Source of the DNA: an uncultured Pseudomonadales bacterium
Lineage (GTDB): Bacteria > Patescibacteriota > Microgenomatia > UBA1400 > PJMF01
Direction of reading: 5' to 3'
DNA: 64,000 nt
Assembly: GCA_964437755.1 (NCBI GenBank)
Contig: CAYTIA010000004.1
Coordinates: forward strand, 11,687-75,686
The notes beneath the pieces were generated by a model. The model searched no databases and was not told where the DNA came from. It saw nothing but the letters and a program-made list of their open reading frames with translations. This document shows positions 10,658-57,746 of this stretch, piece by piece. Position numbers and translations under genes: made by a program. Positions within the stretch are counted from its first letter, which is position 1. Each line of letters opens with the position of its first letter.

Positions 10658-10673
10658 ATTGATATCTGTGAGC

Positions 10674-11362: not shown

Positions 11363-11387
11363 TCCGTAATAACAAAAAAAGAGAAAA

Positions 11388-11591: not shown

Positions 11592-11619
11592 AAGAAAAGT
11601 AAAAAAAATAAAGGCAAAT

Positions 11620-11973
11620 ATGGCAAGATCAAAAACAAGTACCGTCCGAAGAAAAAAACATAATAAAATTCTTAATTTAGCTAAAGGCTTTACTGGCGCC
11701 AATAATAGACTTTTTAAAAGAGCTCATGAGGCCGTTTTGCATGCTGGTCAGTATGCTTACGCTGGTAGAAAGCTCAGGAAAAGAGATATGCGAAGATTGT
11801 GGATAGTTCGTATCAACTCTGGCTTAACTGCTGCAGAATCAACTCTAAATTACTCTCGCTTTATAAAAGCCTTAGATGACAAAAAAATTGAACTTAACAG
11901 GAAGATGCTTTCTGATTTAGTAGTTAACGACATGGATGCTTTTAAAGAAATAGTAAATCAAGTAACCAAATAA
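11620..11973 (+). CDS. rplT: 50S ribosomal protein L20
   Basis: 117 aa. MARSKTSTVRRKKHNKILNLAKGF...RINSGL matches L20. Confidence 0.9.
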   Translation: MARSKTSTVRRKKHNKILNLAKGFTGANNRLFKRAHEAVLHAGQYAYAGRKLRKRDMRRLWIVRINSGLTAAESTLNYSRFIKALDDKKIELNRKMLSDLVVNDMDAFKEIVNQVTK

Positions 11974-12060
11974 AAAATGATCTTTCAATATCAATTTACT
12001 AGCTTCTTCTTTTTTAACAACAAGAATTGGCGGTAAGTTGAGTTTACTTATAAAAACATC

Positions 12061-12086
12061 AACCCCGCCAAGGCGGGGTTTTTTTA
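12061..12086 (+). terminator. rho-independent terminator after rplT
   Basis: A GC stem (ccccgc caag gcgggg) is followed immediately by a 7-T run, about 90 nt after the rplT stop. Confidence 0.7.
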
Positions 12087-12128
12087 TTATTTTAATGATA
12101 AAATTAACCAATCAATAATCAAAACCAC

Positions 12129-35905: not shown

Positions 35906-36622
35906 CTACATCGCTTCTTGTCCCCCGCACTCCCAGTCACAGGTGATCTCATTGCATACCCAAGGATATCCTCCAATGCAATAACCACCCGGAGGAAGAC
36001 CTACACAACAAACAGATTCTGGTGTTGGAAAAAGGGTAATTGTTGGAACAGAAGTTGGGGGAACAGGGGTAGCTGTTGGCCCAACAGGCACAAACACCTC
36101 TGAATCATGGAGATTCTTTGCCAATTTAAAACTAGAATTTACAGAAACCTCATCGCCGACATCATTTAACCAGCTAATAATAATTTCAACACTAATTTCA
36201 TTAGCATCAACTACCACGGAAGCAACTTGTTTTATTTGTGCAGGAATATCTCCTGAAACCGCAACAAAAGGGCAATTTTCTCCCGTGGGCAATCCAGAAA
36301 ATACATTGTTGTTAACACCTGTTGAAAAGCTGTTAACACCATTAAGACAGTAAGTTCTTGTTTCTAACACCGAGCTTAATCCAGACCAACCCAAGATACT
36401 TCTTTCTTGACGAAAAAAATCTATTCTTGACTGAGCTAACTCTGAAGAATAATTTCTAACTCTAGCTTGAGAGTCAGACTTCATTGTATAAGTCATTAGA
36501 GTTGCCAAACCTACCATTACTAAAGCCAGAACTGTTCCTGAAACCAAAATCTCTAAAAGACTAAAGCCACTATCTTTGTTCAAGTATTCTTTTTCAATAA
36601 TTTTTTTCATTAATATTCCCAA
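35906..36622 (-). CDS. prepilin-type minor pilin with a C-terminal Pro/Thr linker and 6-Cys module
   Basis: 238 aa. DSG|FSLLEILVSG class III signal. C-terminus is PVGPTATPVPPTSVPTITLFPTPESVCCVGLPPGGYCIGGYPWVCNEITCDWECGGQEAM. Confidence 0.7.
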   Translation of the reverse strand: MGILMKKIIEKEYLNKDSGFSLLEILVSGTVLALVMVGLATLMTYTMKSDSQARVRNYSSELAQSRIDFFRQERSILGWSGLSSVLETRTYCLNGVNSFSTGVNNNVFSGLPTGENCPFVAVSGDIPAQIKQVASVVVDANEISVEIIISWLNDVGDEVSVNSSFKLAKNLHDSEVFVPVGPTATPVPPTSVPTITLFPTPESVCCVGLPPGGYCIGGYPWVCNEITCDWECGGQEAM

Positions 36623-36625
36623 TTG

Positions 36626-37288
36626 TTAATATACAGAAGACTCAATACATTCCCAAACACAAGTACTTGGATTACACCACCAATTCCAAGGACAAGCATC
36701 ATCAGGAATACCATGACAACATTGAGTAATTATATCTGTTGGTGCTGGAATAAAAGAAGTTGGAGATGGAGTCATTTGTTCGACTATTATCTCAATCTCT
36801 CCAGATCTCACTACTCCAGATCGATGAATCGAAATTGTCATTTCACCAAAGGCGCTCTCTAAAGATACTCCATTAGTTTCCGGTGCATCAGCAGGATCTA
36901 AATCATCATCAATTATCCCCGTTACTGCTCTCGAATAAAGAGTATTGGAACTTAAAAAACTTACGCCGCTTGATACTTTTAAAGTTCTTAATTCTTCAGG
37001 GCTTCCATTACTACCATCTAAACACCTGGGTTTGATCTCGATCACTCCCGTTCCATTGTCATTATAAAAATCAATCTGATAGGCTTCTAAACTAGTACAA
37101 CCTCTCATTTTGCCACTACGAGCAGAAATTTGGGCTGACTCAACTGCTTCTCGAACCAGCTCAGCTGCTTGTGTTAACTTTTGTCGATCATTAAAATTGA
37201 TATACCCAGAAATTCCCATTCCAAGTAAAAGTAATAAAATTGCTATTGATACCAATAATTCTATTAAAGAAAAACCTTTGTGATTCAT
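36626..37288 (-). CDS. prepilin-type minor pilin with a C-terminal Pro/Thr linker and 6-Cys module (paralogous C-terminus)
   Basis: 220 aa. KG|FSLIELLVSIAILLLLLG class III signal. C-terminus is TPSPTSFIPAPTDIITQCCHGIPDDACPWNWWCNPSTCVWECIESSVY. Confidence 0.7.
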   Translation of the reverse strand: MNHKGFSLIELLVSIAILLLLLGMGISGYINFNDRQKLTQAAELVREAVESAQISARSGKMRGCTSLEAYQIDFYNDNGTGVIEIKPRCLDGSNGSPEELRTLKVSSGVSFLSSNTLYSRAVTGIIDDDLDPADAPETNGVSLESAFGEMTISIHRSGVVRSGEIEIIVEQMTPSPTSFIPAPTDIITQCCHGIPDDACPWNWWCNPSTCVWECIESSVY

Positions 37289-37292
37289 TTTT

Positions 37293-37682
37293 TTATGGAT
37301 TGCTCAAAGTATAGGGATTAATTGCATTTGGATCTTCTAAGTTCACGCTAAGAGTAAAAGTTGAGGCAGTAGAGGAGTAGACATAAACATTGCTCCCTGG
37401 ATCTCTAAAACGTTCCACACCATCGCTTAAATAACCCTGAGTATTAAGATAGGTAACCACTCCATCAAAATTATAGCCTGTTGGATAGCTACCCACATCT
37501 GAACGATACAGCACCAGAGCTTGACGAACAGTTTCCAGATCGGCCTTACGCTTTGAATCTCGGCTTTTAATCGAGGCCGTTCTATAACTTATCACTCCTA
37601 TAGTAGTTAAGACAACAATGATCGTGGCAACTACTAGCAATTCAATCAGAGAGAAGCCATTTTTTGGTAATTTCTTTTTCAT
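37293..37682 (-). CDS. type IV pilin-like protein
   Basis: 129 aa. NG|FSLIELLVVATIIVVL class III signal. Confidence 0.7.
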   Translation of the reverse strand: MKKKLPKNGFSLIELLVVATIIVVLTTIGVISYRTASIKSRDSKRKADLETVRQALVLYRSDVGSYPTGYNFDGVVTYLNTQGYLSDGVERFRDPGSNVYVYSSTASTFTLSVNLEDPNAINPYTLSNP

Positions 37683-37688
37683 AATAAA

Positions 37689-38105
37689 CTATTGTAAGTT
37701 GGTAAGACAGTAATAACCACCACTTGATGCAAAGCCACAAGAATTATTTGATGAGTTACCATCGGTCCCATCAAGATCAGCGCAAACACAGTAACCGCCT
37801 GGAGCCCTTGCAACGCAAGTATATTCTGCACCAGCAGGAGCACCAGATGGAAAATAGGTGTTTGCTTTCATTGCTTCACAGCTTGAAGCAGTACTATAAG
37901 AACCATTATCAGCATAATACTGCTCAAAGCCATCTTGCATGGCTTTGACGTTGGCTCTACGCCTAGCATCTCGTGCCTTTCGTTGAGCAGAAGAGTAAGC
38001 CACCACACCAATTACCACCAAGATTGCAATAATGGCTATCACAACCAATAATTCCAAAAGAGAGAAGCCTGAAGACTTTTTTTTATTTTGTCGAAAAATT
38101 TTCAT
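37689..38105 (-). CDS. type IV pilin (paralog A)
   Basis: 138 aa. SSG|FSLLELLVVIAIIAIL. Shares ...AMQDGFEQYY... and C-terminal YTC..A.GGYCVCA with the next gene. Confidence 0.75.
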   Translation of the reverse strand: MKIFRQNKKKSSGFSLLELLVVIAIIAILVVIGVVAYSSAQRKARDARRRANVKAMQDGFEQYYADNGSYSTASSCEAMKANTYFPSGAPAGAEYTCVARAPGGYCVCADLDGTDGNSSNNSCGFASSGGYYCLTNLQ

Positions 38106-38121
38106 ATTTACAAATAAGTAA

Positions 38122-38565
38122 TTAAATTGGGTTGTATAAACTTGTCAAACAAAAATACTCTTGATCAGTAGCAGAACTATTCAGGTTTTCACATGAGGTA
38201 CCATCAGCATTGCCGTTGATAGTTTCTGTACGAGCGCAGACACAATAACCATAGGCTGCTGGCGTAGTGCAGGTATAGCTCATACCCGGCTTTGGATCGG
38301 TGGGAAACCCTCCGGGAAAATTGTCTTCATCAGCCATCATCGCAGCGCAGTTATAATTTCCATTTTCAAGATAATATTGCTCAAAACCTTGTTGAGCTGC
38401 CTTGATATCAGATTTTCTTCTTGAATCTCTACCTTTTTTTTGAGAAGAAGTTAATGAGGCAGTAAGTAAACCTAATAATATGGCAATTATCGAGATTACT
38501 ACCAATAGCTCTAGTAAAGTAAAGCCTTCATTTTTTTTATTGGACAGTTTTGTATGACAAATCAT
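38122..38565 (-). CDS. type IV pilin (paralog B)
   Basis: 147 aa. NEG|FTLLELLVVISIIAIL. Shares ...AAQQGFEQYY... and C-terminal YTC..AAYGYCVCA. Confidence 0.75.
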   Translation of the reverse strand: MICHTKLSNKKNEGFTLLELLVVISIIAILLGLLTASLTSSQKKGRDSRRKSDIKAAQQGFEQYYLENGNYNCAAMMADEDNFPGGFPTDPKPGMSYTCTTPAAYGYCVCARTETINGNADGTSCENLNSSATDQEYFCLTSLYNPI

Positions 38566-38578
38566 ATTTTTTATTAGA

Positions 38579-39574
38579 TTAATTAACCTTGACTATAACC
38601 AAGTTTTGCGGACTGTCATAGGACTCAATTTTACCCTCTTTAATTACTTTAAGTTTAGCATGATATTCACAACTAGCTGCTAAACATTGATATTGATGTT
38701 CAACCTGACCTCTCATGCCAACAAACTGTTCTTTTTTACCATCTCCAAAATCTAGCTCAACTTCAATTGACTCTTCCTCAATTTCATTTGAAAAAATGGT
38801 TTCAACTGAAGCAATGAACCTTTCCACAGGATCATCACTATCTAAATATCCTGTAAAACTAGTTTCAAGGCTCGGAGAAACAACGAAAGAAAAAACAACA
38901 GCTTGATTCTTTGAAACTTCTAAAATTCGATCAATTTTGTTGTAATATGGCTGAGTGCTAAAACTTAAAATAATTGGTCTATCCACACAAAACTCATTGC
39001 AATCTTGAGGACAATCAAGAGCCTCAAATTCCTGTAAACCCTGCCCAAGCTGCATGCTGGTATCACAACAAGAATAACCATAAGAAACACACTCGCTTGG
39101 AGGACCAGCAACCCCTGAAAAAACTGCGGGTTTACTAGAAGTAACTATTTCATCATCAAGAACTGTAACTGAACCAGTTCTTTTTAAAACAGTAAAATTC
39201 ATTCCTAATTCTTGACCCCAGCGAACACCAGACTTACCAGTTTGAACCATGACAAAAGGAGGTAGATCTTCTGTAATAACTTCAATTGGGGAATGCTCTC
39301 GCTGATTACAGACTACTTCCACCACATAAGAATTTGAGTCAGTAAATCTTAATTGAGTCACATGTACTATGCCTTTTTCATCCCGATCACTACCTTTAGA
39401 GGCACACTCTGTGGCATAGCTCTGAGTATGCTGAATATCCCTAACTTGTTTTAAGCTCTGCTTAACTTTTGAAGTTGTCATTGCCAGCATAACTTCACGG
39501 GTAATCAAAAATCCCAATCCCAAGACTAAAGCAAGAATAATTATTGAGGTTAATAAAGCTTTTATGACTCTCAT
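38579..39574 (-). CDS. pilus-cluster membrane-anchored Cys-rich protein of unknown function
   Basis: N-terminal transmembrane anchor (ALLTSIIILALVLGLGFLI), then an extracellular domain with CVSYGYSCCDTSM...DCPQDCNEFC. The ORF-track start (GTG at 39613) overlaps pilD by 43 nt. An internal ATG at 39574 overlaps the pilD TGA as ATGA, and I prefer that start (331 aa). Confidence 0.5.
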   Translation of the reverse strand: MRVIKALLTSIIILALVLGLGFLITREVMLAMTTSKVKQSLKQVRDIQHTQSYATECASKGSDRDEKGIVHVTQLRFTDSNSYVVEVVCNQREHSPIEVITEDLPPFVMVQTGKSGVRWGQELGMNFTVLKRTGSVTVLDDEIVTSSKPAVFSGVAGPPSECVSYGYSCCDTSMQLGQGLQEFEALDCPQDCNEFCVDRPIILSFSTQPYYNKIDRILEVSKNQAVVFSFVVSPSLETSFTGYLDSDDPVERFIASVETIFSNEIEEESIEVELDFGDGKKEQFVGMRGQVEHQYQCLAASCEYHAKLKVIKEGKIESYDSPQNLVIVKVN

Positions 39575-40464
39575 AATAGTTGCCAGTAAGCTTGCCAAAG
39601 ATCTGCTCCCCACGCTAGAGCAATTAAGGAACCTAACACTAAAAATGGACCGAATGAAATCATCTGACCAGTTTTAGCCCTGCGTGTTATTAATAAAATT
39701 ATGCCCCAAACTCCACCAATAATAAAGGTACAAAAAATTCCCACTGTTGCTAGTTTATAACCCAAAACCATTGCCAGAGGAAAAACTAGTTTTATGTCAC
39801 CCCAACCAAGACCATATTTTTTTAAGAAAAGCAAAGGAAGATAACGAAGCATCAAAAAAAATAATAATAAAAGTGTGGCAACAGCTAGATCATTGAAAAA
39901 AGATGCTTGGATATTAAACAGTTGTTCGCTCACAGCTTTCATCACTGCTACTAATCCCACTAACAAAACCAACTCATCAGGAATAATCATGTATTTTTGA
40001 TCAAAAAGTAATATCAACCAAAGAAAAATAATGAAGATAAGCAAAAAGAGAAAACTAAAAAGAGGATTGTTGAAATAAGCGGGTGTTGAGAGATGTAAAT
40101 AACCAACAAACACAAACAAAATACCTGTTAATAATTCTACCAAAGGATAATCCAAGCCAATCTTTATTTTACAAAAACGACATTTACCTCCTAACAACAG
40201 ATAAGAAAGCAAAGGAATGTTGTCATACCAGTGGATGTTTTTACCGCAACTCTGGCAATGTGATCGACCAGTTACCCAACTATTATTATTTAGGGATTTT
40301 TTTTGCTTTTTAACCAATACATCTTCGCTGTACTTTTCTTCAGATCGGTCAACAATCACCTTAAAAAAACTTCCAAAGAATAAACCAAACACAAATAAAA
40401 CTAAGTAAAAGAACAAAGGATAGTCGTAAAAAAATACAAAAGAATTAATTAGGGATTGAAACAT
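39571..40464 (-). CDS. pilD: prepilin peptidase (A24 family) PilD
   Basis: 297 aa. N-terminal CxxC...CxxC zinc motif (CQSCGKN...CRFCKIKI), polytopic membrane topology, catalytic Asp regions (LFDQKYMIIPD; GWGDIKL). Confidence 0.85.
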   Translation of the reverse strand: MFQSLINSFVFFYDYPLFFYLVLFVFGLFFGSFFKVIVDRSEEKYSEDVLVKKQKKSLNNNSWVTGRSHCQSCGKNIHWYDNIPLLSYLLLGGKCRFCKIKIGLDYPLVELLTGILFVFVGYLHLSTPAYFNNPLFSFLFLLIFIIFLWLILLFDQKYMIIPDELVLLVGLVAVMKAVSEQLFNIQASFFNDLAVATLLLLFFLMLRYLPLLFLKKYGLGWGDIKLVFPLAMVLGYKLATVGIFCTFIIGGVWGIILLITRRAKTGQMISFGPFLVLGSLIALAWGADLWQAYWQLL

Positions 40465-40503
40465 ATACTTAGTTTATCAAAATAGAGAAGGGGAAAGGTA
40501 AGC

Positions 40504-40531
40504 AAAAAAAGCCCCAGATTTTGTCTGGGGC
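40504..40531 (-). terminator. rho-independent terminator downstream of the major pilin gene
   Basis: On the minus strand there is a perfect 8-bp GC-rich stem (GCCCCAGA..TCTGGGGC) with a 5-nt loop, followed by UUUUUUU (the plus-strand A-run at 40504..40510). It lies about 30 nt after the pilin stop. Confidence 0.65.
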
Positions 40532-40560
40532 TAAAAATTTAATTTTATAACCTGCTTTTG

Positions 40561-41322
40561 TTATGGTAAGCAAACCATAGCTCCTGGGACATCTTTTAAA
40601 CCATCAAAAGTTTCTGTTGGATTGCAGATAAAGTTGGCAGCAGCTTCTTCTATATCAACTGGCAACCCGACTCCATAAGTATAATCTTCTCCTGGCTCAG
40701 CAGGGTCAGCGCATCTTTCTAGAGCTTGAGTGTCGAAGGCTCCAGATTGTGGCACAAAACAGACATATGTACTAGCACCAGGTAGACCATTATTATAAAG
40801 ATATAACGTTCTTCCAGCTCCGCTAGCAACTCTTCTAGTAAAACTTTCTTTCAGTTCTTGAGCACCCGCACAGTTTGCCACCCCCTCGCTACCGGTTGAT
40901 AGTCGAGTTAATATTGGACAGCCAGTGGCTGGAGGATCTTCCTGGGCAAATACATCACCAACCAACCAACCAAACATTCCTCCACCATTTAAGACAATAT
41001 TTGGAGTTGGTTCTTCAGGAACACCGCCCACAGCAGGAGTTGTCTCTGTTACCGGAACAGGATATCCGTCAGCATCCATAATGGCAATATTAGGATCATT
41101 GGCATCAATCTGCCAAGGGAAATAGCCCTGAAATGCATTGTATCGATCAATAGCACTCAACAACTGCTCTGCATCCGATTGCCTACCTGTGTCTCTACCT
41201 CTATTAATTTGCTCGATAGGATTAATTGCTGAAAGAACTGCAACTGCCAAAATACCAAGAATGGTAATGACGATCAACAGCTCGATCATGGTAAAACCTA
41301 ATTGACGATGGAGTCTTTTCAT
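40561..41322 (-). CDS. type IV major pilin candidate
   Basis: 253 aa. QLG|FTMIELLIVITILGILAVAV class III signal. It has its own strong terminator and elevated GC, which is consistent with high expression. It sits directly after pilC. Confidence 0.75.
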   Translation of the reverse strand: MKRLHRQLGFTMIELLIVITILGILAVAVLSAINPIEQINRGRDTGRQSDAEQLLSAIDRYNAFQGYFPWQIDANDPNIAIMDADGYPVPVTETTPAVGGVPEEPTPNIVLNGGGMFGWLVGDVFAQEDPPATGCPILTRLSTGSEGVANCAGAQELKESFTRRVASGAGRTLYLYNNGLPGASTYVCFVPQSGAFDTQALERCADPAEPGEDYTYGVGLPVDIEEAAANFICNPTETFDGLKDVPGAMVCLP

Positions 41323-41453
41323 ATTTCCTTTAATAATTTCTTTTAACTACTTATTAATAATTAACAGAAGTTCGGCAGAACTCCTATATCTAATTTATAA
41401 CAATTGAGCAGTTCAATGCAAGAGTCATTTCAAGATTAACAGATCAAAATCAC

Positions 41454-42656
41454 TTAAAATTGCGATGACAAACTATAGATTGGCATCATTATAGAGACAA
41501 CCATAAAACCAACTCCTGCTCCCAAGACAATCATAATTAACGGTTCAATTGCAGTTGTTAAGTTTTTAACCGCGTACTCACTTTCCTTTTCATAATACTC
41601 TGAAAGTTTAAAAAGAATTTCATCAATTCTTCCTGTTTCTTCACCAACTTGAATCATTTGCGGTAAAAGAGAGGGGAAAACTTCTTTAATCTCGATTGCT
41701 GCTGATAAACTCATTCCACGCTCAATCTCTTTCTTGGCTTCTTTGACTGCATCGCGATAAGTGACACTTTCAAGAGCATTGCCTACGATATCTAGTGCCT
41801 CTAGCAAAGAAACACCAGCACTCAATAGTAAAGACAAAGTCCTAGCGAACTCAGTTAGGATAATCTTTGTTCGCAAAACTCCATAAATCGGAATCTTATT
41901 AAGAAACTTGTCAAAGCTGTGTTCGCCCGCTTCAGTTTTAACCCAAGTTCTAAAAATCAAAAAAAATATAATTCCCACTATAAACATTGCCCACCAATAT
42001 TTTGCCATCAACCCTGAAACGCCCATTAAAATCCTGGTTGGTAGCGGTAAATCAGCCCCAAAATCTCGATACATTTCGGTTAACTGGGGCAGAACAAAAA
42101 CCATCATGATAAAACCAACTATCAACATTGCAAACAGCACAATGATGGGGTAGATCATTGCTCCTTTGGTTTTGGCAGCAAAATCTTTTTGTTTTTCAAG
42201 CGTCAGCGCTAGACGATCTAAAACTGAGTCAAGCACACCACCTATCTCTCCAGCTCGAACCAATTGAATATAAACCCTTGAAAAAACATCGGGGTGTTCT
42301 TTAAGAGCTTCAGCAAAACTCTTTCCACTTTCAACATCTTTAAGAATTTTTATCACCACCGCTGCCATTGCTGGCTTGGCTTGCTCTTGAAGTATAACTA
42401 AAGATGTTGCTAGTGGCAAGCCAGCGCCAATCATAGTTGACAACTGGCGAGTAAAGTTCACCAAATCGTCATCCTTGACCCCCATTAGTTTACTCTGGAT
42501 AAAACCAAAAGATCCCTCAGCAATAGGTCTAATGTTGATAATTAAAAGTGAGCGAGAAATTAAGGCGTTGGCAGCTTGATTGGTATTTTTGGCTTCTACC
42601 TTTCCCTTAATGGTTTCACCGTGTTCATTCTTTGCAGTGTATTTATAAATTGGCAT
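41454..42656 (-). CDS. pilC: type IV pilus platform protein PilC (GspF family)
   Basis: 400 aa. Two GspF repeats with three transmembrane helices. Confidence 0.85.
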   Translation of the reverse strand: MPIYKYTAKNEHGETIKGKVEAKNTNQAANALISRSLLIINIRPIAEGSFGFIQSKLMGVKDDDLVNFTRQLSTMIGAGLPLATSLVILQEQAKPAMAAVVIKILKDVESGKSFAEALKEHPDVFSRVYIQLVRAGEIGGVLDSVLDRLALTLEKQKDFAAKTKGAMIYPIIVLFAMLIVGFIMMVFVLPQLTEMYRDFGADLPLPTRILMGVSGLMAKYWWAMFIVGIIFFLIFRTWVKTEAGEHSFDKFLNKIPIYGVLRTKIILTEFARTLSLLLSAGVSLLEALDIVGNALESVTYRDAVKEAKKEIERGMSLSAAIEIKEVFPSLLPQMIQVGEETGRIDEILFKLSEYYEKESEYAVKNLTTAIEPLIMIVLGAGVGFMVVSIMMPIYSLSSQF

Positions 42657-42679
42657 ATGTACAAAGATATAATCTTTAT

Positions 42680-43738
42680 CTATCCCTCACCCAACAACCT
42701 CATCATCTCATTTGGTCTAAAAGCGTGTCTCATCGCAATTTCACGACTAACCAAACCCTGTTGAATTAGATGAATAAAGTGATTTTCAATTAGCATCATT
42801 CCTTGTTGACCAGAAGTTTGCAAAACATTATCAATTTGGAACGTTTTACCTTCTCTAATAAGATTACGAATAGCATCGTTAGCAAACATCAACTCAATGG
42901 CTGGAATTCTGCCCCCTCCTTGTCTTGGCACCAACCTTTGAGAAACAACCGCCACAACGGTGTTTGCCAACTGTTGACGTATTTGTCCTTGTTGCTCAGC
43001 TGGAAAAACATCAATAATTCTATCCATTGTTTGAGCAGCTGTTCCAGTATGTAAGGTCGCAAAAACAAGGTGACCTGTTTCTGCTACAGTAATCGCTGCT
43101 GCTATAGTTTCATGATCTCTCATCTCACCAACTAACACAACATCAGGATCTTCTCTTAAAGCAGCTCTTAGGGCTATGCCCCAATCTTGAGTATCGTGAT
43201 GCATCTCTCTTTGAGAGATTATACTTTTATCTGGTTGATATACATACTCAATTGGATCTTCAATTGTTAAGATATGTTCAGCGCGAGAATGATTTATCTG
43301 ATCAATCACTGCAGCCAAAGTGCTAGATTTACCCTCACCAGTTGGACCAGTGACTAACACAAAACCCTGTTTGTATTGAGAAAGTTTGTTTAAGTCTGGA
43401 GGAAGTGAAAGTTCCTCTATAGTTTTAATTCTTTGTGGAATTAAACGCAGGGCGGCTGCCCAACTTCCCTGAGAAAAATAGACATTAACCCTAAACCTAG
43501 CTTTTTTTTGAAATTGGTATCCTAAATCAAGCTCTTTATCTACTACTACCATCTCTTTTTGTTCTTCTGAGAGCAGGGGTTCTATTAATACACGAACCGA
43601 TTGTGAATCTAAAACAGGGGATCCTTCAACGGGTACGAGTTCTCCGTCAATTCTGAAATATGGTTGTGAGCCAACAATCAAATGAAGGTCTGATCCATCG
43701 AGTTCAACTAATTTTGCTAAAAGATCATAAATATTCAT
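42680..43738 (-). CDS. pilT: twitching-motility retraction ATPase PilT
   Basis: 352 aa. Walker A GPTGEGKS, Asp/His boxes and the PilT-specific length. No N-terminal GspE_N domain. Confidence 0.85.
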   Translation of the reverse strand: MNIYDLLAKLVELDGSDLHLIVGSQPYFRIDGELVPVEGSPVLDSQSVRVLIEPLLSEEQKEMVVVDKELDLGYQFQKKARFRVNVYFSQGSWAAALRLIPQRIKTIEELSLPPDLNKLSQYKQGFVLVTGPTGEGKSSTLAAVIDQINHSRAEHILTIEDPIEYVYQPDKSIISQREMHHDTQDWGIALRAALREDPDVVLVGEMRDHETIAAAITVAETGHLVFATLHTGTAAQTMDRIIDVFPAEQQGQIRQQLANTVVAVVSQRLVPRQGGGRIPAIELMFANDAIRNLIREGKTFQIDNVLQTSGQQGMMLIENHFIHLIQQGLVSREIAMRHAFRPNEMMRLLGEG

Positions 43739-43785
43739 ATGTTCGTCAAATAAGCTAATAATCTTTTATCATCTATTTATTTCTC

Positions 43786-45615
43786 TTAACGCTCCTCTGC
43801 AACTCTAAGTACCTCTTCAATTGTAGTGATTCCATCTAGAGCTTTCAAGTAACCATCTTGTTTCATTCTAACTAATCCTTGCTTCATGGCTTCTTCCTCA
43901 ATTTGATCTGATGTAGCGCTCTTGTTAACCAATGATTTTATTGATTCACTCATCTCCATCACTTCAAAAATACCAACTCGACCCCTATACTCGGGTTCTG
44001 TCTGAGGACGATTTTCTTTTGGTCTATGCAAAGTTATTTTATTTGGATCCTTGCTGTTTTGTTTGCACCAATCATCAAAATGAGATCCTAAAACATTTTT
44101 TATATCCTCAACAACTGCTTTGTCTGGCTCGTACTCCTCTTTATAATCAGGATTAATCACTCTTACCACCCTTTGTCCCATAGCTAAAATCATTGATGAA
44201 GAAAGTAAAAAAGGCTCAATACCCATATCAATTAATCTTGGAAGTGCACCCGCCGCAGAGTTTGCGTGAAGAGTAGAAAAGACCAAGTGACCAGTTAAAG
44301 ATGCTTGAACAGCAAGCTCAGCAGTTTCTTTATCTCTGATCTCTCCAACCATAATTACATCAGGATCTTGACGTAAAAATGATCTTAAACCTGTAGCAAA
44401 AGTTAATCCCGCTTGAGAATGAACCTGCACTTGAGTAATTCCTTTCATCTGATACTCAACAGGATCTTCCAAAGTCATAATATTAACTTTTGGAGTATTA
44501 ATAATGTTCAAAATTGAGTAGAGGCTAGTTGTTTTTCCAGATCCTGTTGGTCCTGTTACCAAAAAGATTCCATGAGGAATTTTTATTGCTTTTCTAACAT
44601 TTTGTAAGGCTAATCCTGTTAAGCCCAAGTCCTCAAGCTCTGGTACCGCCGCATTTTTTTTGAGTAAACGCATCACTACCTTTTCACCATGGATACTTGG
44701 CATCGTAGAAATACGCAAATCAACATCTTGATTATTAGATTGATAGTCAAATCTTCCATCCTGAGGAATTCTTTTTTCATCGATCTTAAGATCTGACATA
44801 ATCTTTACTCTTGAAACAACAGCATCATGAACTGATCTGGGCAAAACCAATTTTTCTAGAAGAATGCCATCAACTCTATATCTAACTCTAGTTTTTTCAA
44901 GTAAAGGCTCTATGTGAATATCTGAAGCTCTAGATTGAAGTGCATATTCCAAGATCGTATCAACTATTTTATTAATAGGAGCTGCCCTAATAAAACCACC
45001 CTGATGAGCTTCAAGAGCGCTAGCCTTTTTTGTTCCAATTTCAGTATTCTCCTCAATGGCGGCACTCACATCTCCAGATAAATCCTGAGCATAACGCTCA
45101 GTAATCATTCTTTTCACCTCTGAAGAAGAGGCATAATATAACTCTAGAGATGCTCCAGTCTTTTGCTCAATAAAATTGATTGCAGTTAAATTCAAAGGAT
45201 CGGCCATCGCCGCCTTAATAACATTCGTTTCTTTATCATAAGCAAAAGGTAAAACTTGATAGCGTTTAGCCACGCTTTCATCAATCATATTCATTGCTTC
45301 AGGCGATACACCTGTTTCGGCAACTGCAATAAAAGGAATGTTATTTAATTTTGCTTTGGCTTTGGTTAAGTTGATTTCAGAAACAAACTCACCATCTTTA
45401 ATAATCTGCTCAATTGGTTTATTGGTAGCTAGATAAACATTATTGATTTCCTGAGCCTGTTCTGTAGTAATATGCTGATTATCTACTAAAACCTTTAACA
45501 AACCCGTTACATTTGATCCTGTTTTTTGTAACAAAGAATCAGAATTTCCAAAAGAATAACTCTGGTTAGAACTAGATTGCAAAACTGGGGTTTGAGTTAA
45601 ATCTTGGGCAGACAT
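43786..45615 (-). CDS. pilB: type IV pilus assembly ATPase PilB (GspE family)
   Basis: 609 aa. N-terminal T2SSE_N-like domain, Walker A GPTGSGKT, Walker B/His box. No tetracysteine motif. Confidence 0.85.
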   Translation of the reverse strand: MSAQDLTQTPVLQSSSNQSYSFGNSDSLLQKTGSNVTGLLKVLVDNQHITTEQAQEINNVYLATNKPIEQIIKDGEFVSEINLTKAKAKLNNIPFIAVAETGVSPEAMNMIDESVAKRYQVLPFAYDKETNVIKAAMADPLNLTAINFIEQKTGASLELYYASSSEVKRMITERYAQDLSGDVSAAIEENTEIGTKKASALEAHQGGFIRAAPINKIVDTILEYALQSRASDIHIEPLLEKTRVRYRVDGILLEKLVLPRSVHDAVVSRVKIMSDLKIDEKRIPQDGRFDYQSNNQDVDLRISTMPSIHGEKVVMRLLKKNAAVPELEDLGLTGLALQNVRKAIKIPHGIFLVTGPTGSGKTTSLYSILNIINTPKVNIMTLEDPVEYQMKGITQVQVHSQAGLTFATGLRSFLRQDPDVIMVGEIRDKETAELAVQASLTGHLVFSTLHANSAAGALPRLIDMGIEPFLLSSSMILAMGQRVVRVINPDYKEEYEPDKAVVEDIKNVLGSHFDDWCKQNSKDPNKITLHRPKENRPQTEPEYRGRVGIFEVMEMSESIKSLVNKSATSDQIEEEAMKQGLVRMKQDGYLKALDGITTIEEVLRVAEER

Positions 45616-49670: not shown

Positions 49671-52373
49671 ATGACAGACAAAGACATCACAAACTCAACT
49701 TTACCAGAAGATGATCAATCACTCACTGAAGTTGATGCTCAAGAATCAACAACCAACGGAAGTTTAGTTGGCACAACCACTGAAACAGACTTCGGAAAAG
49801 TAAGACATACTTCCATAGTTAACGAGATGGAAAAATCTTATCTAGATTATGCCATGAGTGTGATCGTTTCTCGTGCTTTACCAGATGTTCGCGATGGCCT
49901 AAAACCTGTCCAAAGACGTATCTTATACTCGATGTATAAGAGTGGTATTCACCATACTTCAGGTTACAAGAAATGTGCTCGCATTGTAGGAGACGTTTTA
50001 GGTAAATACCATCCTCATGGAGATAGCTCGGTTTATCTAGCATTAGTACGTCTAGCTCAAGATTTTAATGTTCGCTATCCACTTGTTGACGGCCAAGGAA
50101 ACTTTGGCTCTATTGATGGTGACAGCCCCGCCGCAATGCGTTACACCGAAGCCAGGCTTGATAAAATCTCTCAAGAAATTCTTGAAGATATCAACAAACA
50201 AACTGTTCCTCTTAACGATAACTTTGATGGTTCCCTCCAAGAACCAACTGTTTTACCAGGAAAACTCCCCAACCTTTTGCTTATGGGAGCTGAGGGTATT
50301 GCTGTTGGCATGGCCACCAAAATTCCTCCTCACAATCTTAAAGAAGTGTGTAGCGCAGTTATTGAAATGATTAACAAAGGAGAGGTTGAAATAAGTGATG
50401 ACCAACTTGCCATCAATAATTTATTTTCTAATGAGATCGATCCTGAATTATTGGCCAAACTAGTAACCACGCTTCTGGAACTTGAACCAAGAGAAATTGC
50501 TGGTCAGTTTGGAAGCAATATTACTACAGATGAAATTATGGAGTTTATTCAGGGTCCTGACTTTCCAACTGGAGCAATTATTTATGATTTCAATGAAATT
50601 AAAGAGGCTTATGTTAAGGGAAAAGGTCGAGTAATCATTCGCTCAAAAGCAGAGATTGTTGAGAACAAAAATCATTTTGAGATTGTTGTTTCTGAAATTC
50701 CTTATCAAGTTAATAAATCGCGTCTCATTGAGCAGATCGCCGATTTAGTTAGAAACGATAAGATTGATGGCATCCGCAATATTCGCGATGACTCAGATCG
50801 ACAAGGTTTGCAAATCACCATTGAGCTAAAAAAAGGTTCTAGACCAAAAGTGGTTTTAAACAAGCTCTTTAAGTATTCTCAACTGCAAACAAGTTATCCA
50901 ATGAACGTTGTTGCTCTAAATAGCGAGGGAACTCCGCAGTTAATGAATATTAAGCAGGTTTTGGGGGAATACATCAGACATCGTCAATTAATTGTAGTCA
51001 AAAGAAGTTTATTTGATCTGGTCGAAGCCAGAGATCGCGCTCATATTCTTGAAGGATTATTAATCGCTCTCAATAATCTTGACGAAGTGATTAAAACAAT
51101 TCGTAACTCTGTAGACACGCCAACTGCCCATGATCAATTAATGAAAAAGTTTGGGCTATCAGATCCTCAGTCAACCGCAATCTTAGAAATGCAACTTAAA
51201 AGATTGGCAGCTTTGGAAAGACAAAAAATTGAGGATGAGTATGAGGAAATCAAAAAAACAATGATAGTTTTGACCAAATTACTCACTCATCCTAAACAAA
51301 TATTAGAAAAAATTATCGAGGAACTTCAAGAACTAATCGATAATTACGGCGATGAAAGACGCACTAAACTCATAAAAGGAAAAATTGGCGAGTTCAGCGA
51401 AATGGATCTTGTCCCCAATCAAGCTGCAGTAATTGCCCTAACTAAACAAAACTATTTAAAACGCCTCACCCCAAAAACCTTTAAGTCTCAGGGAAGGGGA
51501 GGGAAGGGGGTTAAGCTCAACATGAAAGAAGAGGATAGCATTGAAACCCTTCTTACTTGTGAATCACATGATGTTTTACTGTTTTTTACCAATAGGGGTC
51601 GAGTCTTTAAACTTAGAGCTTTTGAGGTTCCAGAATCAAGTCGAACCGCCAGAGGCACTGCTGCCGTTAATCTACTAAGTCTAAAACAAGACGAGAAGAT
51701 TCAGTCTTTATTGGTCCTTAATGAAAAAAATGATAAAGATAAATCAATCGCCCTGGCCACCAGAAAGGGATTAGTTAAAAAAACTGCAGTCAGTCAATTT
51801 GAAAATATTCGCTCCACAGGAATCATTGCTATCACTTTAAATGACGATGATGAGCTTGTTAGAGGACAAATTACCAATGGAAAAGAGGAGTTATTTTTAG
51901 GCTCTTATAATGGAAAATCAATCAGATTTAATGAAGCTGAAGTCAAAGAATCAAGTAGAGATACCAAGGGTGTTAAAGGTATTAGTCTGAAAAAAGATGA
52001 TTATGTTGTTGCTTTTGAAAAAATTGGAGACGAACTGAAGCAAGATAAAGAAGCAGCTATTCTTGTTGTTACTGAGAAAGGCATGGGAAAACGTACTCCA
52101 ATCGATCAGTATCCTGTGCAAAAACGATCTGGCCTAGGAGTTAAGATTTCTGATATTACAACTAGAACTGGAAAAGTAGCAAGCATCAGAATTATGACTA
52201 AAGAGCATAGAGAGTTGGTTATTTCAACTGAAAAGGGGCAAACTATTAAACTTGCTAATAGCAAAAGAACCCTTCCTTATTTAACTCGTCCAACCCAAGG
52301 TGTAATCTTAATGAAACTTCCAAAAGATGATAAGGTTGTTACAACTGCCCTAACTGAAGAGGAAACAGAATAA
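49671..52373 (+). CDS. gyrA: DNA gyrase subunit A
   Basis: 900 aa. QRD-region motifs (AMRYTEARL, active-site Tyr region), a GyrA box-like QGRGGKGVK and C-terminal beta-pinwheel repeats. Confidence 0.9.
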
Positions 52374-52438
52374 ATAAGGTGGCCTCGGATATTTTCTTAA
52401 AAAATTTTTGATGATTAGAGAAGAGTAGTGATAAAATG

Positions 52439-52512
52439 TGGACTCAGCGGGGCTCGAACCCGCGACCTCTTACATGCCATGCAAGCGCTCTAGCCAACTG
52501 AGCTATGAGCCC
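52439..52512 (-). tRNA. tRNA-Ala (anticodon GGC)
   Basis: The minus-strand cloverleaf has a G3:U70 identity pair in the acceptor stem (GGGCTCA/TGAGTCC), anticodon loop ATGGCAT, and T-arm GCGGG TTCGAGC CCCGC. It is 74 nt and CCA is not encoded. Confidence 0.85.
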
Positions 52513-52876
52513 ATCAATGTTTTACAATCAGTTATTTTAACACAAGCACAAGTTCATGATAATAAGAATATATTGATATAGATAATTACCTATATGATAT
52601 CTTAGTTTAAGATAATAAGTATATAGATATCTTTTATTATATAAATCAATCGTTTAATATATTCTTATTAAGAAGATATTCAGAGCTCTCTTTGCTCGCT
52701 ACTATTTCTAAATAGTTTTAATTAATATGAAACAATTTCCCAAGAAAGAGAATTGGCAATCTTATATTGTATTTTCATCATAAAAATTATGATGATACAT
52801 CAAGCAATGTATGAAAATTAACATATTAGCACTCTTTTTGCTCATCTGCTAAAAAAACAGCCATTCATTTTCCTAA

Positions 52877-53842
52877 TTAACTATCTAGTTTTCCTCGAGT
52901 TCTTAAGTCTGAGTGATACTTTTCATGGATCTGTCTCAACTTAGGCTGCGTTACGTGAGTATAGATTTGAGTAGTGGCAATATTTTTGTGACCAAGTAGC
53001 TCCTGAACATCTCTCAGTCCAGCTCCATTATTTAATAGATCAGTAGCAAAACTGTGTCTAATACCGTGAGGAGTTAACTGCACAACCAGCTTAGCTTTTC
53101 TGGCATACTTTTTTACAATCCTCTGCACACTCCTTGATGAAAGTCTAGCACTTTCTCCATCCTCAGTAATGTCTGGTTTCTTACCAGAGTAATGAATAAA
53201 AACAGGTATCCAGTTATCATCTCTAGAGCTTAAATATTTTCGTAACCAAATAGTAGCCTGTTCACTTAAAAATACCACTCTAGGCTTTCTTCCTTTTCCG
53301 ATCACTCCAAACTCTTTGCGTTCTAAATCTATCTGATCACGATCTAAACTTACTAACTCACTAACACGCAATCCTGTTGAAAAAAGTACTTCTAAAATAG
53401 CCCTGTCCCTTAAGCCAGTCTTTGTTGAAAGAGTAGGCTGAGCCAATAATCTCTCCATCTTATCTGATGTTATAAACTGCATTGAGGTTGGTTCACCTTT
53501 AGGAAGATCGATCTTCTCTGGGTGAAGAACTTTAATATCATTTTTTACTAACCACTTGAACCAGGAACGAATGGCAATTACATGATAGCTCTGAGTGGTT
53601 TTAGCTAGAGTTTCACCCTGATCATTATCTAATCTATTAAGATAAACTCTATATTTTCTGAGTAAATCTTGATTGATCTCGACTAAACTTGAGCAGTTTT
53701 GAGAATTGCACCAATCAATAAACCTCTGTAGATAATGTCTATAATTTCTGATTGTTAATGAGCTTAAATTTTTTTCAACTTCTAGATGTTCCAAAAAGTT
53801 AATCATTGAAGACTGAAGAGGATTCTGTTTTTCATTTTTCAT
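52877..53842 (-). CDS. xer: Xer-type tyrosine site-specific recombinase (XerC/XerD family)
   Basis: 321 aa. N-terminal core-binding domain (FLEHLEVEKNLSSLTIRNYRHYL). Catalytic motifs R (GLRVSELVSLDR), HGIRHSFAT and LGHKNIATTQIYTHV (Tyr nucleophile). Confidence 0.85.
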   Translation of the reverse strand: MKNEKQNPLQSSMINFLEHLEVEKNLSSLTIRNYRHYLQRFIDWCNSQNCSSLVEINQDLLRKYRVYLNRLDNDQGETLAKTTQSYHVIAIRSWFKWLVKNDIKVLHPEKIDLPKGEPTSMQFITSDKMERLLAQPTLSTKTGLRDRAILEVLFSTGLRVSELVSLDRDQIDLERKEFGVIGKGRKPRVVFLSEQATIWLRKYLSSRDDNWIPVFIHYSGKKPDITEDGESARLSSRSVQRIVKKYARKAKLVVQLTPHGIRHSFATDLLNNGAGLRDVQELLGHKNIATTQIYTHVTQPKLRQIHEKYHSDLRTRGKLDS

Positions 53843-54597
53843 GTGCCAGTCTCATTATAGCTTAGAAAAATGAGAAAATATGAGAGCTAACTCAAGAATT
53901 CCAGAGGTGTGATTTTTAGCAGAGGAGGGGATTAGCTGCTAAATTGACGATTATCAATTTTTACTTGATGTATAGGTGTTTTTAAACTATTATTTAAAAA
54001 AATCTTATCACTTATATACCTTTTGATATCTTTTGATGATGTTAAATTACTATTCAATTATATCATCAATACACAGAATTTTCGTAAAATGTGTAGCATA
54101 TCAATTGGATTCATTTGTATTAAAAAAAATACTAAAAGTTAATTATGTCTTCCTTTAATTACTAAAGTAATTAATACTGATAGCAAAAAAGTATGGTTTA
54201 AGCAGATTAGAATACTGAGAATTATCTTTTTATGAAAAATACTAACAGTCGTATACGTAAACACAGTTTATCTCTTTTTAGACTAATAATTGATATATCA
54301 GTCTTTTATTAATATAAAATTCAGCAATTTACTAGAGATAAGCCTACTTAGAGGCTCAAAAACGGCTTTTTAATTATCTTTGCCTAGCTAGTATCATGAA
54401 ATAAAATTACTCTCATATCTATTTTGTATATGTTTGATAGTAATTGCTAGAAATAATAAGGAGGCTAAAGATTGATGACATCGTGGAGGAGAATTATTAG
54501 AAAAACATACCATGTATTTGAATATTAGATAAATAATCTAAAAACATCAGATTAATAAAAAAAGAAAGAAAATTTAAAACCGAGCCTATCTTAGGTG

Positions 54598-54627
54598 TAT
54601 GTCGCAAAAGTTATATTGTGCGACATA
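54598..54627. other. candidate dif-like Xer recombination site (12-bp imperfect inverted arms around a 6-bp centre)
   Basis: TATGTCGCAAAA-gttata-TTGTGCGACATA; the arms match at 11 of 12 positions. The architecture (about 11+6+11) and internal resemblance to bacterial dif (cGCAtAA-TgTATA-TTaTG) fit. It lies 755 bp from the only xer gene, inside an ORF-free region. Confidence 0.35.
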
Positions 54628-55002
54628 AGAACTTTCTTTATTTTGATTAGGGTCTTCCTAAGAGTAGAGGCCAACTCTCTCTATTCAATCTAGGTTCGTT
54701 CCATTGGTCTTATGATTTTATCTCTCCCTCTCTCATGAGCACTTCTCCTGCAACCCCCAAAAAATCAAATCTTAATCTTAAGAAATATAAAGTTAAGAAT
54801 CAGCATTCGGGTTATTTACTTTTTACCTTAAATTGTACAAAATGATACTTTACTCAACTCACCTCCATCTCGCTCTCCTCACAAGTCCCTTGTTACAGAA
54901 ATAGACCTAGACATAACTATTCAGGCATAATTGTTGTGAATTAAGTGTAAATTCTTTGCTTTTTGTGAATCGGAGCGCGGTAACCAGGCTTAATTATCAA
55001 AG

Positions 55003-55011
55003 TTATCCACA
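55003..55011 (+). promoter_or_regulatory. perfect consensus DnaA box (TTATCCACA)
   Basis: Exact 9-mer match within the 1.5 kb ORF-free AT-rich region. It is a single copy, so its function is uncertain. Confidence 0.25.
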
Positions 55012-55016
55012 TTGTC

Positions 55017-55052
55017 AACTATATCAAAGCACATCATTTAACTATATCAAAG
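55017..55052 (+). repeat. two 13-bp direct repeats (AACTATATCAAAG) spaced 23 bp apart
   Basis: Copies at 55017..55029 and 55040..55052, immediately 3' of the DnaA box. Confidence 0.4.
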
Positions 55053-55332
55053 TATATTAGCACTCATTTATTATAGGATCCTCTTCTCTAGTTCCCCCAT
55101 TATTTTTTTTACCTATTCTCTATTTCCATTTTCTATTAAAAACTGTTTAATAATTAATGTTTTATACATTTATTCTTGTCTATAATTGACTGATTTTATT
55201 TTCAAGTTATTTCCAATCTCAATATACATATATTGAATAGATTACTTAAATTTCATTTTCACTCTACTCTATTTTTTTACCGCAATATCAGCGAAAAATA
55301 AATTCGTTATTAACTCTATGATAGTGAAAATG

Positions 55333-56100
55333 TTACTTTAGAGGAAAAAAGATTAGAAACAGAAAAGCCAGAAAAATCCCCATTAACGAAAACTCTCTAA
55401 CAGTACTCTTAAATAGTCTTCCTCTTAAAAAGGAGTGCAATATTCCAAGAGTCAAGTATATTAACCCAGTTATAAATAACGAGGCATTCCATAATGAAAT
55501 AGGTAATAAAGAAAGAAGCATGGCAAACTCAGTCATAAATAAACTAATCAGTAATGAGTACACCAACAAGTCTTTAGCAATAAAATCCTCAAGATTGACC
55601 GACCACAGCGAACTAAAAACTAGTGGATAATGTACTAAGCCAATCAATAACCCATTCCCCCAAAATGGTAGTTTTAAAGAGAAAATTGTGTTTGTAAATA
55701 GTAATGATGTTAATAATACAATTAAAAAGCCAATTGCATGAGCAGCATATAAAAGTTGAATTGTTCTCCCCTTAGCCACTGAAAAAATATTGCATGTTAA
55801 AAAAAGCGCATATAAACCAAGTCCAAATAAAAAAAGCACTAAAGAGCGACTAAGAATATTGGTTGGAAGCAAAAAATAGAAAAATGATACAGATAATGCA
55901 AATAGGGTTGGTAAAGGAATTATTGTAAAACGCTCATGAAGTTGAAGATCATCAGATAAAGCCCATGACGCAGCTAAATAAGTCAATACTCCCAATCCAG
56001 CTACTCCCCAGTATTTCCATTCGATAGATACATATTGTAATGCAAAAAAAGCAAGTGATAAAAGAAATGTTGAAATAACAAATTTTTCTCTTCTTCTCAT
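55333..56100 (-). CDS. polytopic membrane protein of unknown function
   Basis: 255 aa with about 7-8 predicted transmembrane helices. Its start ATG overlaps the yebC TGA (ATGA). Confidence 0.5.
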   Translation of the reverse strand: MRRREKFVISTFLLSLAFFALQYVSIEWKYWGVAGLGVLTYLAASWALSDDLQLHERFTIIPLPTLFALSVSFFYFLLPTNILSRSLVLFLFGLGLYALFLTCNIFSVAKGRTIQLLYAAHAIGFLIVLLTSLLFTNTIFSLKLPFWGNGLLIGLVHYPLVFSSLWSVNLEDFIAKDLLVYSLLISLFMTEFAMLLSLLPISLWNASLFITGLIYLTLGILHSFLRGRLFKSTVREFSLMGIFLAFLFLIFFPLK

Positions 56101-56939: not shown

Positions 56940-57746
56940 ATGAAAAATATCGCCCCTCTCCAAAAACAAGCAGTTGAAGCTGCAAAGCAAAGTAGGTGGT
57001 CAGAAGCTATAGAGCTTAATCAAGAAATTCTTCAAGAAAATCCCTGCAACATCAATGCTCTTAATCGGCTTGCCTTGGCGCAAATGCAGTTTTCTCAAAT
57101 TGAGGAAGCAAAACAAACACTTTGTCGAGTACTCGAATTAGACAAACTCAACAAAATAGCCCTAAAAAATCTTGAGAAAGCAAAAAAGAAACAAAAAGGG
57201 AAAGTAGCTCAATTCAATCAATGTTCTTCATATATAGAAGAACCAGGAAAAGCAAAAGTAATTGATTTGACAAGACTAGCAGATAATAAGAGTTTGAAAA
57301 GATGTGCTGTTGGTCAAAAATGCATCCTTGACCCAAAAAAAAGTTTAATTTCAATAAATATTGCTGAAAACAACAGTTATCTAGGAACCTTGCCAAAAGA
57401 GATTTCGGCCAGACTAATTAATCTCATCAATAGCGGAAACGAGTATGGGTGTGTTATTCACTCTATTGAGTCAGATCAAGAAAAATGCAAAGTATATATT
57501 GAAGAGCTAAAAGTATCTTCAAAAAATCTTGGGAAAACTTCATTTCCAATAACCATAGAAACCGAATATCAAGATCCTGAAATAATATCTCTCGAGCATG
57601 AGTTAAAGAACAATCTTCCAATTAATTATGAAGGCGATGGCGATGACGAAGATATTTCTGAAGAGGATAAACAAGATAACTTCGAGGATGCAAATAAATC
57701 ACTTCTCAGCTCATCTATTCAAGATGACAGCGATGAGGATGAATAA
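56940..57746 (+). CDS. hypothetical protein with an N-terminal TPR-like helical region and a strongly acidic C-terminal tail
   Basis: 268 aa. TPR-like AIELNQEILQENPCNINALNRLALAQMQ. C-terminal DGDDEDISEEDKQDNFED...DDSDEDE. Confidence 0.45.
   Translation: MKNIAPLQKQAVEAAKQSRWSEAIELNQEILQENPCNINALNRLALAQMQFSQIEEAKQTLCRVLELDKLNKIALKNLEKAKKKQKGKVAQFNQCSSYIEEPGKAKVIDLTRLADNKSLKRCAVGQKCILDPKKSLISINIAENNSYLGTLPKEISARLINLINSGNEYGCVIHSIESDQEKCKVYIEELKVSSKNLGKTSFPITIETEYQDPEIISLEHELKNNLPINYEGDGDDEDISEEDKQDNFEDANKSLLSSSIQDDSDEDE

Follow-up and report, generated by a model that had tools for sequence, protein, structure and literature searches.

A probable dif-type recombination site next to a XerD-like recombinase gene in a Microgenomates-type CPR genome

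Layout of the xer locus

The DNA analysed here (the window, 64 kb at its full length) contains an ORF-free region of 1.49 kb (53843–55332, ~29.5% GC) that is bordered by xer, a gene for a XerD-like tyrosine recombinase (52877–53842), and by a gene for a DUF5656 protein (55333–56100), both on the minus strand. Within this region lies a palindrome, TATGTCGCAAAA-GTTATA-TTGTGCGACATA, at positions 54598–54627, with arms that are complementary at 11 of 12 positions; the full 30-mer reads TATGTCGCAAAAGTTATATTGTGCGACATA. A preliminary description of the sequence had reported a 30-bp element with an 11-of-12 arm match around GTTATA, situated in an ORF-free region of about 1.5 kb at 755 bp from xer. The sequence bears out each of these statements, with the xer start at a distance of 755 bp. 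Conservation in related loci delimits a core of 28 bp, to which the 30-mer adds one weakly conserved base per end. The core and its presumed enzyme are composed as follows.

52877–53842, minus strand: xer, XerD-like tyrosine recombinase of 321 amino acids, presumed enzyme for the site
54599–54626, no strand assigned: 28-bp putative core recombination site (dif-like), bounded by conservation in 65 loci
54599–54609: left arm of the core, ATGTCGCAAAA
54610–54615: centre of the core, GTTATA
54616–54626: right arm of the core, TTGTGCGACAT

The core has the layout of a dif-type site, namely about 28 bp with two imperfect-dyad arms of about 11 bp around a central region of 6–8 bp. It is part of the sole 12-6-12 palindrome with at most one mismatch in the window, and no second match to the 30-mer, including any hybrid copy of the site, was found in the window when up to three mismatches were allowed. 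First-order Markov simulations of the window yielded a mean of 0.47 such palindromes, with at least one in 37% of the simulated windows. The bare palindrome is not beyond chance; its weight comes from conservation. When compared with reference dif sequences, the core was identical to E. coli dif at 17 of 28 positions, which is in the top 0.01% of window 28-mers, and to B. subtilis dif at 16 of 28. Random 28-mers scored 8.8 on average in this comparison, with a 99th percentile of 14, and a few non-palindromic 28-mers of the window also reach 17–18.

The Xer protein contains the Pfam Phage_integrase domain and a SAM-like N-terminal domain. Its NCBIfam scores are 255 bits for XerD (cut-off 330), 251 bits for XerC, 210.9 bits for XerA_Arch (NF040815; cut-off 220) and 124 bits for XerS (cut-off 267). 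Since it scores below the equivalog cut-offs, the protein is Xer-like and is not certified as XerC or XerD. The nearest solved structure is E. coli XerD (1a0p), followed by XerA (4a8e and 5hxy), and XerH structures were absent from the structure matches at E≤1e-10. That this is the only Xer, as had been stated earlier, holds for the window, to which we restrict the claim: it has one tyrosine recombinase gene and no xer paralogue. We did not find ftsK among the annotated ORFs of the window.

Several other features of the window were recorded. An imperfect 61-nt inverted repeat (52795–52855 and 53913–53973, ~69% identity) flanks xer and includes CTGCTAAAAA about 80 nt before the start codon and its complement about 23 nt after the stop codon. 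Two related loci, L001 and L003, show the same bracketing of xer, and several further close relatives have only the copy downstream of the gene. The copy upstream of xer in turn forms a small palindrome, TTTAGCAG-N13-CTGCTAAA. A truncated YebC and a short EF-Ts, both encoded in the window, together with the DUF5656 protein pointed to a CPR bacterium. On the minus strand at 35906–45615, the window has a type IV pilus/type II secretion block with a PilB-like ATPase (43786–45615) and a PilC-like protein (41454–42656). Type IV pili are common inovirus receptors.

Conservation of the core in related genomes

Relatives were gathered with the Xer protein, one genome per species, which gave 80 loci with 52–90% identity in Xer. 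All 80 are from Patescibacteria-type MAGs (Woese-, Gottesman-, Curtiss-, Levy- and Beckwithbacteria and others). Related genomes have been deposited as 'uncultured Pseudomonadales', 'Gammaproteobacteria', 'Bathyarchaeia' and 'Vitreimonas'; their gene content and Xer similarity point to Patescibacteria, and by these measures the database taxon labels of many of the related genomes are unreliable.

One copy of the site with 0–3 mismatches in the core (0–8 over the 30-mer) was found in 65 of the 80 loci, and most of the loci that lack it have too little sequence upstream of xer. The site is almost always upstream of xer, at a distance of 0.3–5 kb and in the same orientation, with one full copy in the window and in each related locus of 8–13 kb. 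It is intergenic in the window and in nearly all related loci, despite differing genes between the site and xer. The intervening genes in Gottesmanbacteria-type loci encode an AP-endonuclease-like TIM barrel, a SpoU methylase and a GNAT protein; because these are of housekeeping type, the possibility that mobile-element genes separate the site from xer was rejected. No mobile-element insertion was seen within the window itself.

Information content across the 65 loci was high over exactly 28 bp, corresponding to positions 54599–54626 of the window, and was at background outside. The consensus in xer sense is ATGTCGCACAA-TaatAC-TTTTgCGACgT, an 11-6-11 arrangement. The arms are near-invariant, with positions that are identical in 63–65 of the 65 loci. 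Within the centre the first and last bases are invariant and the inner four vary, and 14 centre variants were counted in the 65 loci. Two pairs of positions that break the symmetry, C7/T18 and T10/C15, are the same in 63 of the 65 loci, and arm position 5/20 varies independently in the two arms (C-G in 33 loci, C-A in 20, T-G in 6 and T-A in 5). The invariant dyad-breaking positions together with the independent changes at 5/20 argue for a DNA site that is bound by protein and against an RNA stem.

Some loci depart from this pattern. The asymmetric core of L024 (5256) and L026 (5222) is flipped relative to both xer and the flanking motif array described below, and the flip is limited to the site of roughly 24 bp, or to its asymmetric positions. 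Weaker traces of possible recombination at the site were seen in the window's own clade; L048, for example, has a 17-nt direct repeat of arm and centre 564 bp from the full site. Extra arm-like inverted repeats, such as GTCCATTTTGCAACGTC paired with GACAGTCGCAAAATGGAC, occur in some Gottesmanbacteria-type loci near the site and again downstream of xer (L033, 5238–5310 and 7286–7345; L058, 5737).

Motifs at the xer promoter and on the far side of the core

Many Gottesmanbacteria-type loci have a copy of a single arm, (T/C)GTCG(C/T)A(C/A)AAT, 5–50 nt before the xer start codon. These promoter-proximal copies overlap a −10-like hexamer or directly adjoin TTGACA, and some of them have a degenerate second arm six bases away. 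An arm at the xer promoter is the layout that would be expected from autoregulation by an arm-binding protein, which would tie the motif to Xer and not to an unrelated regulator. We also considered that the arm is a general promoter motif, given its overlap with −10 positions before xer. This explanation was rejected because the arm has just four matches in the window, two of them in the palindrome itself and two within genes, the latter by chance.

On the side away from xer, the gap (54628–55332) is conserved in length in relatives and contains short motifs of conserved order and orientation. The motifs in the window are listed below.

54805–54813, minus strand: AACCCGAAT box, also given as ATTCGGGTT; an alignment island and possible accessory element
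55003–55011, plus strand: DnaA box TTATCCACA, perfect match to the consensus; conserved in xer sense as TGTGGA[T/A]AA at ~370 nt from the core
55017–55026 and 55040–55049, minus strand: two direct repeats AACTATATCA (TGATATAGTT on the xer-sense strand), repeat family D7
55070–55075, minus strand: TATAAT hexamer at the head of the array, possible promoter; CCTATAAT ~435 nt from the core in the closest relatives

Read in xer sense, the array begins with CCTATAAT at about −435, continues with one, two or three copies of TGATATAGTT between about −425 and −385, the DnaA box at about −370 and AAAACCCGAAT at about −180 to −200, and ends at the core. The DNA between the motifs evolves freely, even among genomes with 90% identical Xer. 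The repeat motif TGATATAGT was found in 44 of 67 left flanks, often in tandem, and a DnaA-box-like TGTGGA[T/A]AA in 43 of 67 loci. The AACCCGAAT box lies ~180–200 nt from the core, a distance that is conserved in the closest relatives; of 67 left flanks, 32 contain AAACCCGAA, which most Woesebacteria-like loci have between −176 and −212. The combination of a perfect DnaA box with iteron-like repeats suggested an origin of replication in the gap, which was rejected since the sign of the skew is unchanged there too.

Insertion of inoviruses at the same site in Saccharibacteria

The pattern GTCGYACAATNNNNCTTTTRCGAC had 34 exact matches in a collection of viral contigs, none of them in an xer/DUF5656 context. 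About half of these 34 contigs share one layout, in which cellular genes (for a MurG-like glycosyltransferase and a 291-amino acid protein) are followed by the full site, a module of ~5.1–5.9 kb, a partial site and further cellular genes, including one for a DUF3048 protein. The module encodes a Zot-type assembly ATPase (PF05707), a G2P replication protein (PF23343), DUF2726 and small proteins, a gene content that identifies it as an inovirus; no recombinase gene was found in these modules. The host, as judged from relatives of the neighbouring DUF3048 protein, is a low-GC member of the Saccharibacteria (TM7).

The partial copy has the 6-bp centre of the full site and one arm in seven of seven contigs, and its other arm is unrelated or degenerate. 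In all seven, the stretch over which the two flanking copies agree opens exactly with the first centre base, as the 11-6-11 model predicts. Different phage types follow the shared arm in varying orders, which indicates tandem arrays. Strains with identical DUF3048 have no prophage (L122), one (L119–L121) or two (L123): the full site of the empty L122 is at 11563–11586, and in L119–L121 a hybrid is present at 11563 and the full site has moved by 5.1 kb. Full and hybrid copies with a common centre, a breakpoint at that centre and a 0/1/2 polymorphism are the hallmark of elements that co-opt the host's Xer at dif, and the Saccharibacteria contigs display this use of the site by recombinase-less integrative elements (IMEX). 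Judged by sequence, the same type of site appears to be present in at least some Saccharibacteria. The core lies away from xer in these genomes, which belong to another CPR class than the window, and a member of the same Xer family may act on it.

The inoviruses are located singly or in tandem between the DUF3048 gene and a murG-ftsW-mraY cluster of low-GC oral TM7 and comprise at least three phage types (contigs L119–L123, L105, L107, L112, L114, L116 and L118). A 77-amino acid gene stays beside the site even in the 'empty' L122. Oral TM7 prophages have been reported without an attachment site (PMC7739484).

The full 24-bp core was also observed in intergenic DNA of tailed-phage contigs of ~20–48 kb (L095, with the site at 6211–6234, and L092, L101, L104, L108, L111 and L113) that encode a P22-like portal, terminase, primase-helicase and SAM lyase. 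No integrase was detected near the site in these seven contigs. Another contig, L086, does encode a tyrosine integrase, which lies ~0.5 kb from its full site. A scan of the viral collection with the window's own centre and arm gave five matches with unrelated left arms, and this 17-mer is short enough for chance matches.

Position relative to the replication terminus

The preliminary description had placed the site at a point of convergent transcription, as at a replication terminus. The genes holB, gyrB, ppaC and gyrA to the left are indeed on the plus strand, and those to the right are mostly on the minus strand, with the exception of a plus-strand gene at 56940–57746. Gene orientation switches nine times across the window, however, and the convergence at the site is one of these nine. 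The turn in GC skew that had been predicted for this position was not seen when skew was computed locally: it is negative on both sides of the site, without a sign change at 54.6 kb, and a terminus at the point of convergence is not supported.

The GC skew at third codon positions, calculated for the top strand, was −0.15 for plus-strand genes to the left of the site (n=25), −0.20 for minus-strand genes to the left (n=16) and −0.30 for minus-strand genes to the right (n=9), and 40 of 51 window genes have a negative value. As the top-strand skew is negative for both orientations, the skew on the coding strand has opposite signs in the two, and the bias is therefore strand-specific and not a codon preference. 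Four consecutive plus-strand genes at 8813–13223, with a tRNA-Val between them, have a positive third-codon GC skew against the negative trend elsewhere. In 46 of 49 relatives the sign of the third-codon GC skew was the same on both sides of the site within ±6 kb. The empty Saccharibacteria locus likewise had no skew switch within ±10 kb, even though genes converge on the site there.

By the conventional reading of skew, the fork moves from right to left through the whole window, which would put any terminus leftwards beyond xer, over 54 kb from the site. A location of the site at the replication terminus, defined as the shift point of GC skew, is not supported by these local data, which cover the 64-kb window, ±6 kb in the relatives and ±10 kb in the one Saccharibacteria locus. 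Classical dif sites are at ~0–1.4% of genome length from the skew shift point, with outliers below 3% (PMC3025954), and Legionella dif is 89 bp to 79 kb from the skew inflection (PMC9765430). A precedent for another arrangement is Sulfolobus, in which dif is outside the termination zones, close to the xer gene and beside a partial dyad (PMC3020120, PMC2958812).

Discussion

We propose that the element is the dif-type core site of the adjacent XerD-like recombinase and the Microgenomates-type CPR counterpart of dif, a reading to which we assign a probability of about three in four. It is based on the architecture of the element, its conservation, its linkage to xer and, in relatives, mobile elements that are inserted precisely at its centre. 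The earlier suggestion of a dif-like site beside xer has thereby been strongly supported: the 28-bp 11-6-11 unit is conserved and xer-linked, copies of one arm recur at the xer promoter in many relatives, and the same core is the insertion point of inoviruses in Saccharibacteria.

In the proposed mechanism, the Xer protein encoded next to the site would be the enzyme, with one monomer bound to each 11-bp arm (ATGTCGCAAAA and, inverted, ATGTCGCACAA). Two such sites would be held in synapsis by a tetramer, and the strands would be cut and swapped where the arms meet the 6-bp centre GTTATA. The two invariant symmetry-breaking arm positions imply that the half-sites are not equivalent, and with a single recombinase this non-equivalence could determine which strands are exchanged first, as it does for XerH and XerS. 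In the cell, the site would probably serve to resolve chromosome dimers, with integrative elements that lack their own integrase exploiting the same site.

Other explanations were weighed against this one. The element might be an attachment site for recombinases that are encoded by mobile elements, close to xer by historical accident and without a role in chromosome maintenance. The tyrosine integrase beside the full site in L086 and the presence of the site in tailed-phage contigs fit this idea, but the inovirus modules have no recombinase gene, and the arm copies at the xer promoter link the motif to Xer. Moreover, a pure attB would not be expected to be near-invariant, single and xer-linked across genera that are free of prophages, and we consider this explanation improbable.

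Similarly improbable is that the palindrome serves as a transcriptional operator only, bound by a dimeric regulator (perhaps Xer in the role of a pure repressor, or the YebC-family product of a gene two positions away) and never recombined. Arm copies do overlap the xer promoter region in many relatives, the site adjoins a TTGACA-17-TACAAT promoter in Saccharibacteria and phage contigs, and a conserved yebC-DUF5656 operon borders it. A full site at 0.3–5 kb from xer, sometimes with unrelated genes in between, would nevertheless be odd for an operator, and variable centres between invariant arms are the pattern of a recombinase site. An operator also leaves unexplained why prophages have full and hybrid flanks that diverge at the centre, and why strains differ in carrying 0, 1 or 2 of them.

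We see very little room for an RNA element, either the 3'-end hairpin of an unannotated ncRNA that starts at the conserved TATAAT ~435 nt away or a terminator. Such an element would account for an ordered, oriented array of conserved motifs on one side, in an ORF-free gap, and a looser scan of the relatives found that 13 of 67 loci have a terminator-like hairpin in the 90 nt downstream, a 2.3-fold enrichment over the 8% background. The palindrome in the window is not followed by a T-run, however, and a consensus terminator scan found nothing at the site. Rfam searches returned only tRNAs, both at the gathering threshold over the whole window and at E≤5 over 52300–55500, and ARAGORN detected no tmRNA. 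RNAalifold predicted 0 conserved pairs from 16 orthologous sequences. The stem would contain two invariant mismatches and, in 20 of 65 loci (xer sense), a further C-A mismatch, with both one-sided variants in existence, and L024 and L026 have a core that is reversed while the flanks keep their orientation. On the basis of the Rfam, RNAalifold and substitution data, a structured ncRNA of any Rfam family and a conserved paired structure were both rejected. Finally, a chance palindrome in AT-rich spacer DNA, although frequent enough in the simulated windows, is already refuted by conservation of the element with sharp 28-bp boundaries in 65 related loci and in 34 viral contigs.

If the element is a dif site, several uses follow. 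The consensus ATGTCGCACAA-TnnnnC-TTTTGCGACGT would allow dif to be annotated in thousands of CPR genomes, and the 28-bp consensus would mark the boundaries of prophages and IMEX in Saccharibacteria of the human mouth. Genetic tools for the handful of CPR strains that can be cultivated would also gain a natural place to integrate. If dif here is truly off the terminus defined by skew, the coupling of termination, FtsK and dimer resolution that is now taken as general would not be general in bacteria.

Comparison with known Xer systems

Xer/dif is a near-universal solution to chromosome dimers, and the literature that could be searched contained no report of a dif in CPR bacteria. The core resembles the sites of XerCD/dif in E. 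coli and CodV-RipX/dif in B. subtilis in its length of 28 bp, its two 11-bp imperfect-dyad arms and its 6-bp centre, and XerD is the nearest solved relative of the window enzyme. Unlike in those systems, one recombinase gene was seen here, beside the site, and the arms are nearly identical to each other. A further difference is that the skew does not switch at the site, whereas classical dif is within ~0–3% of genome length of the switch (PMC3025954). In Vibrio, the filamentous phages CTXphi and VGJphi, which have no integrase, exploit host Xer at dif (PMC5357621), a parallel to the inoviruses of Saccharibacteria.

XerS/difSL of streptococci and lactococci and XerH/difH of Helicobacter and Campylobacter also combine a single recombinase with a gene-linked site and non-equivalent half-sites (PMC5357621, PMC1914069). 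The locus does not belong to the XerS/difSL class: the 124 bits of the protein on the XerS model (cut-off 267) show that it is not XerS, difSL is 31 bp long with an 11-bp centre compared to 6 bp here, and the arm sequences differ. In the present loci the site is 0.3–5 kb from xer and not immediately adjacent, in contrast to the XerS and XerH systems. Archaeal XerA/dif, especially that of Sulfolobus, is similar in its single Xer and near-palindromic 11-6-11 site, and the 211 bits of the window protein are just below the XerA cut-off of 220. The lineage here is bacterial, however, and the XerD and XerC models outscore XerA, so that the locus was not assigned to this class. XerL/dif of the Legionellales and its mobile element LME-1 share with our system a single recombinase and a partly palindromic, AT-rich intergenic site of ~30 bp, and in both cases dif was recognised through a mobile element that carries a mimic of it (PMC9765430). 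XerL belongs to another recombinase family, and its gene is unlinked to the site on the Legionella chromosome, where dif and the skew inflection are 89 bp–79 kb apart.

The plasmid sites cer and psi consist of a core Xer site and ~180 bp of one-sided accessory DNA that binds accessory proteins, and they use neither FtsK nor a terminus (PMC5357621). Here, too, conserved motifs are arrayed on one side of the core and keep their distance from it, a similarity in layout alone; the motifs are unrelated in sequence to those of cer and psi. By analogy, a one-sided accessory region of the cer/psi kind is an attractive idea, and it would explain resolution away from the terminus. A bolder version, which we consider unlikely, is that CPR bacteria resolve dimers at an off-terminus dif by means of a one-sided accessory block (the AACCCGAAT box, the DnaA-box-like TGTGGAWAA and the TGATATAGTT repeats) and not by FtsK and replichore polarity, and that the site is a phylum-wide landing pad for inoviruses. 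Were this true, a plasmid-type topological filter like that of cer/psi would operate on a chromosome, site and xer would travel as a module, and tailed phages would perhaps also land at the site. Compared with the known systems, the present one would combine a single XerD-like recombinase with a near-symmetric, xer-linked 28-bp site that is conserved across CPR classes, is used by inoviruses and apparently lies off the terminus.
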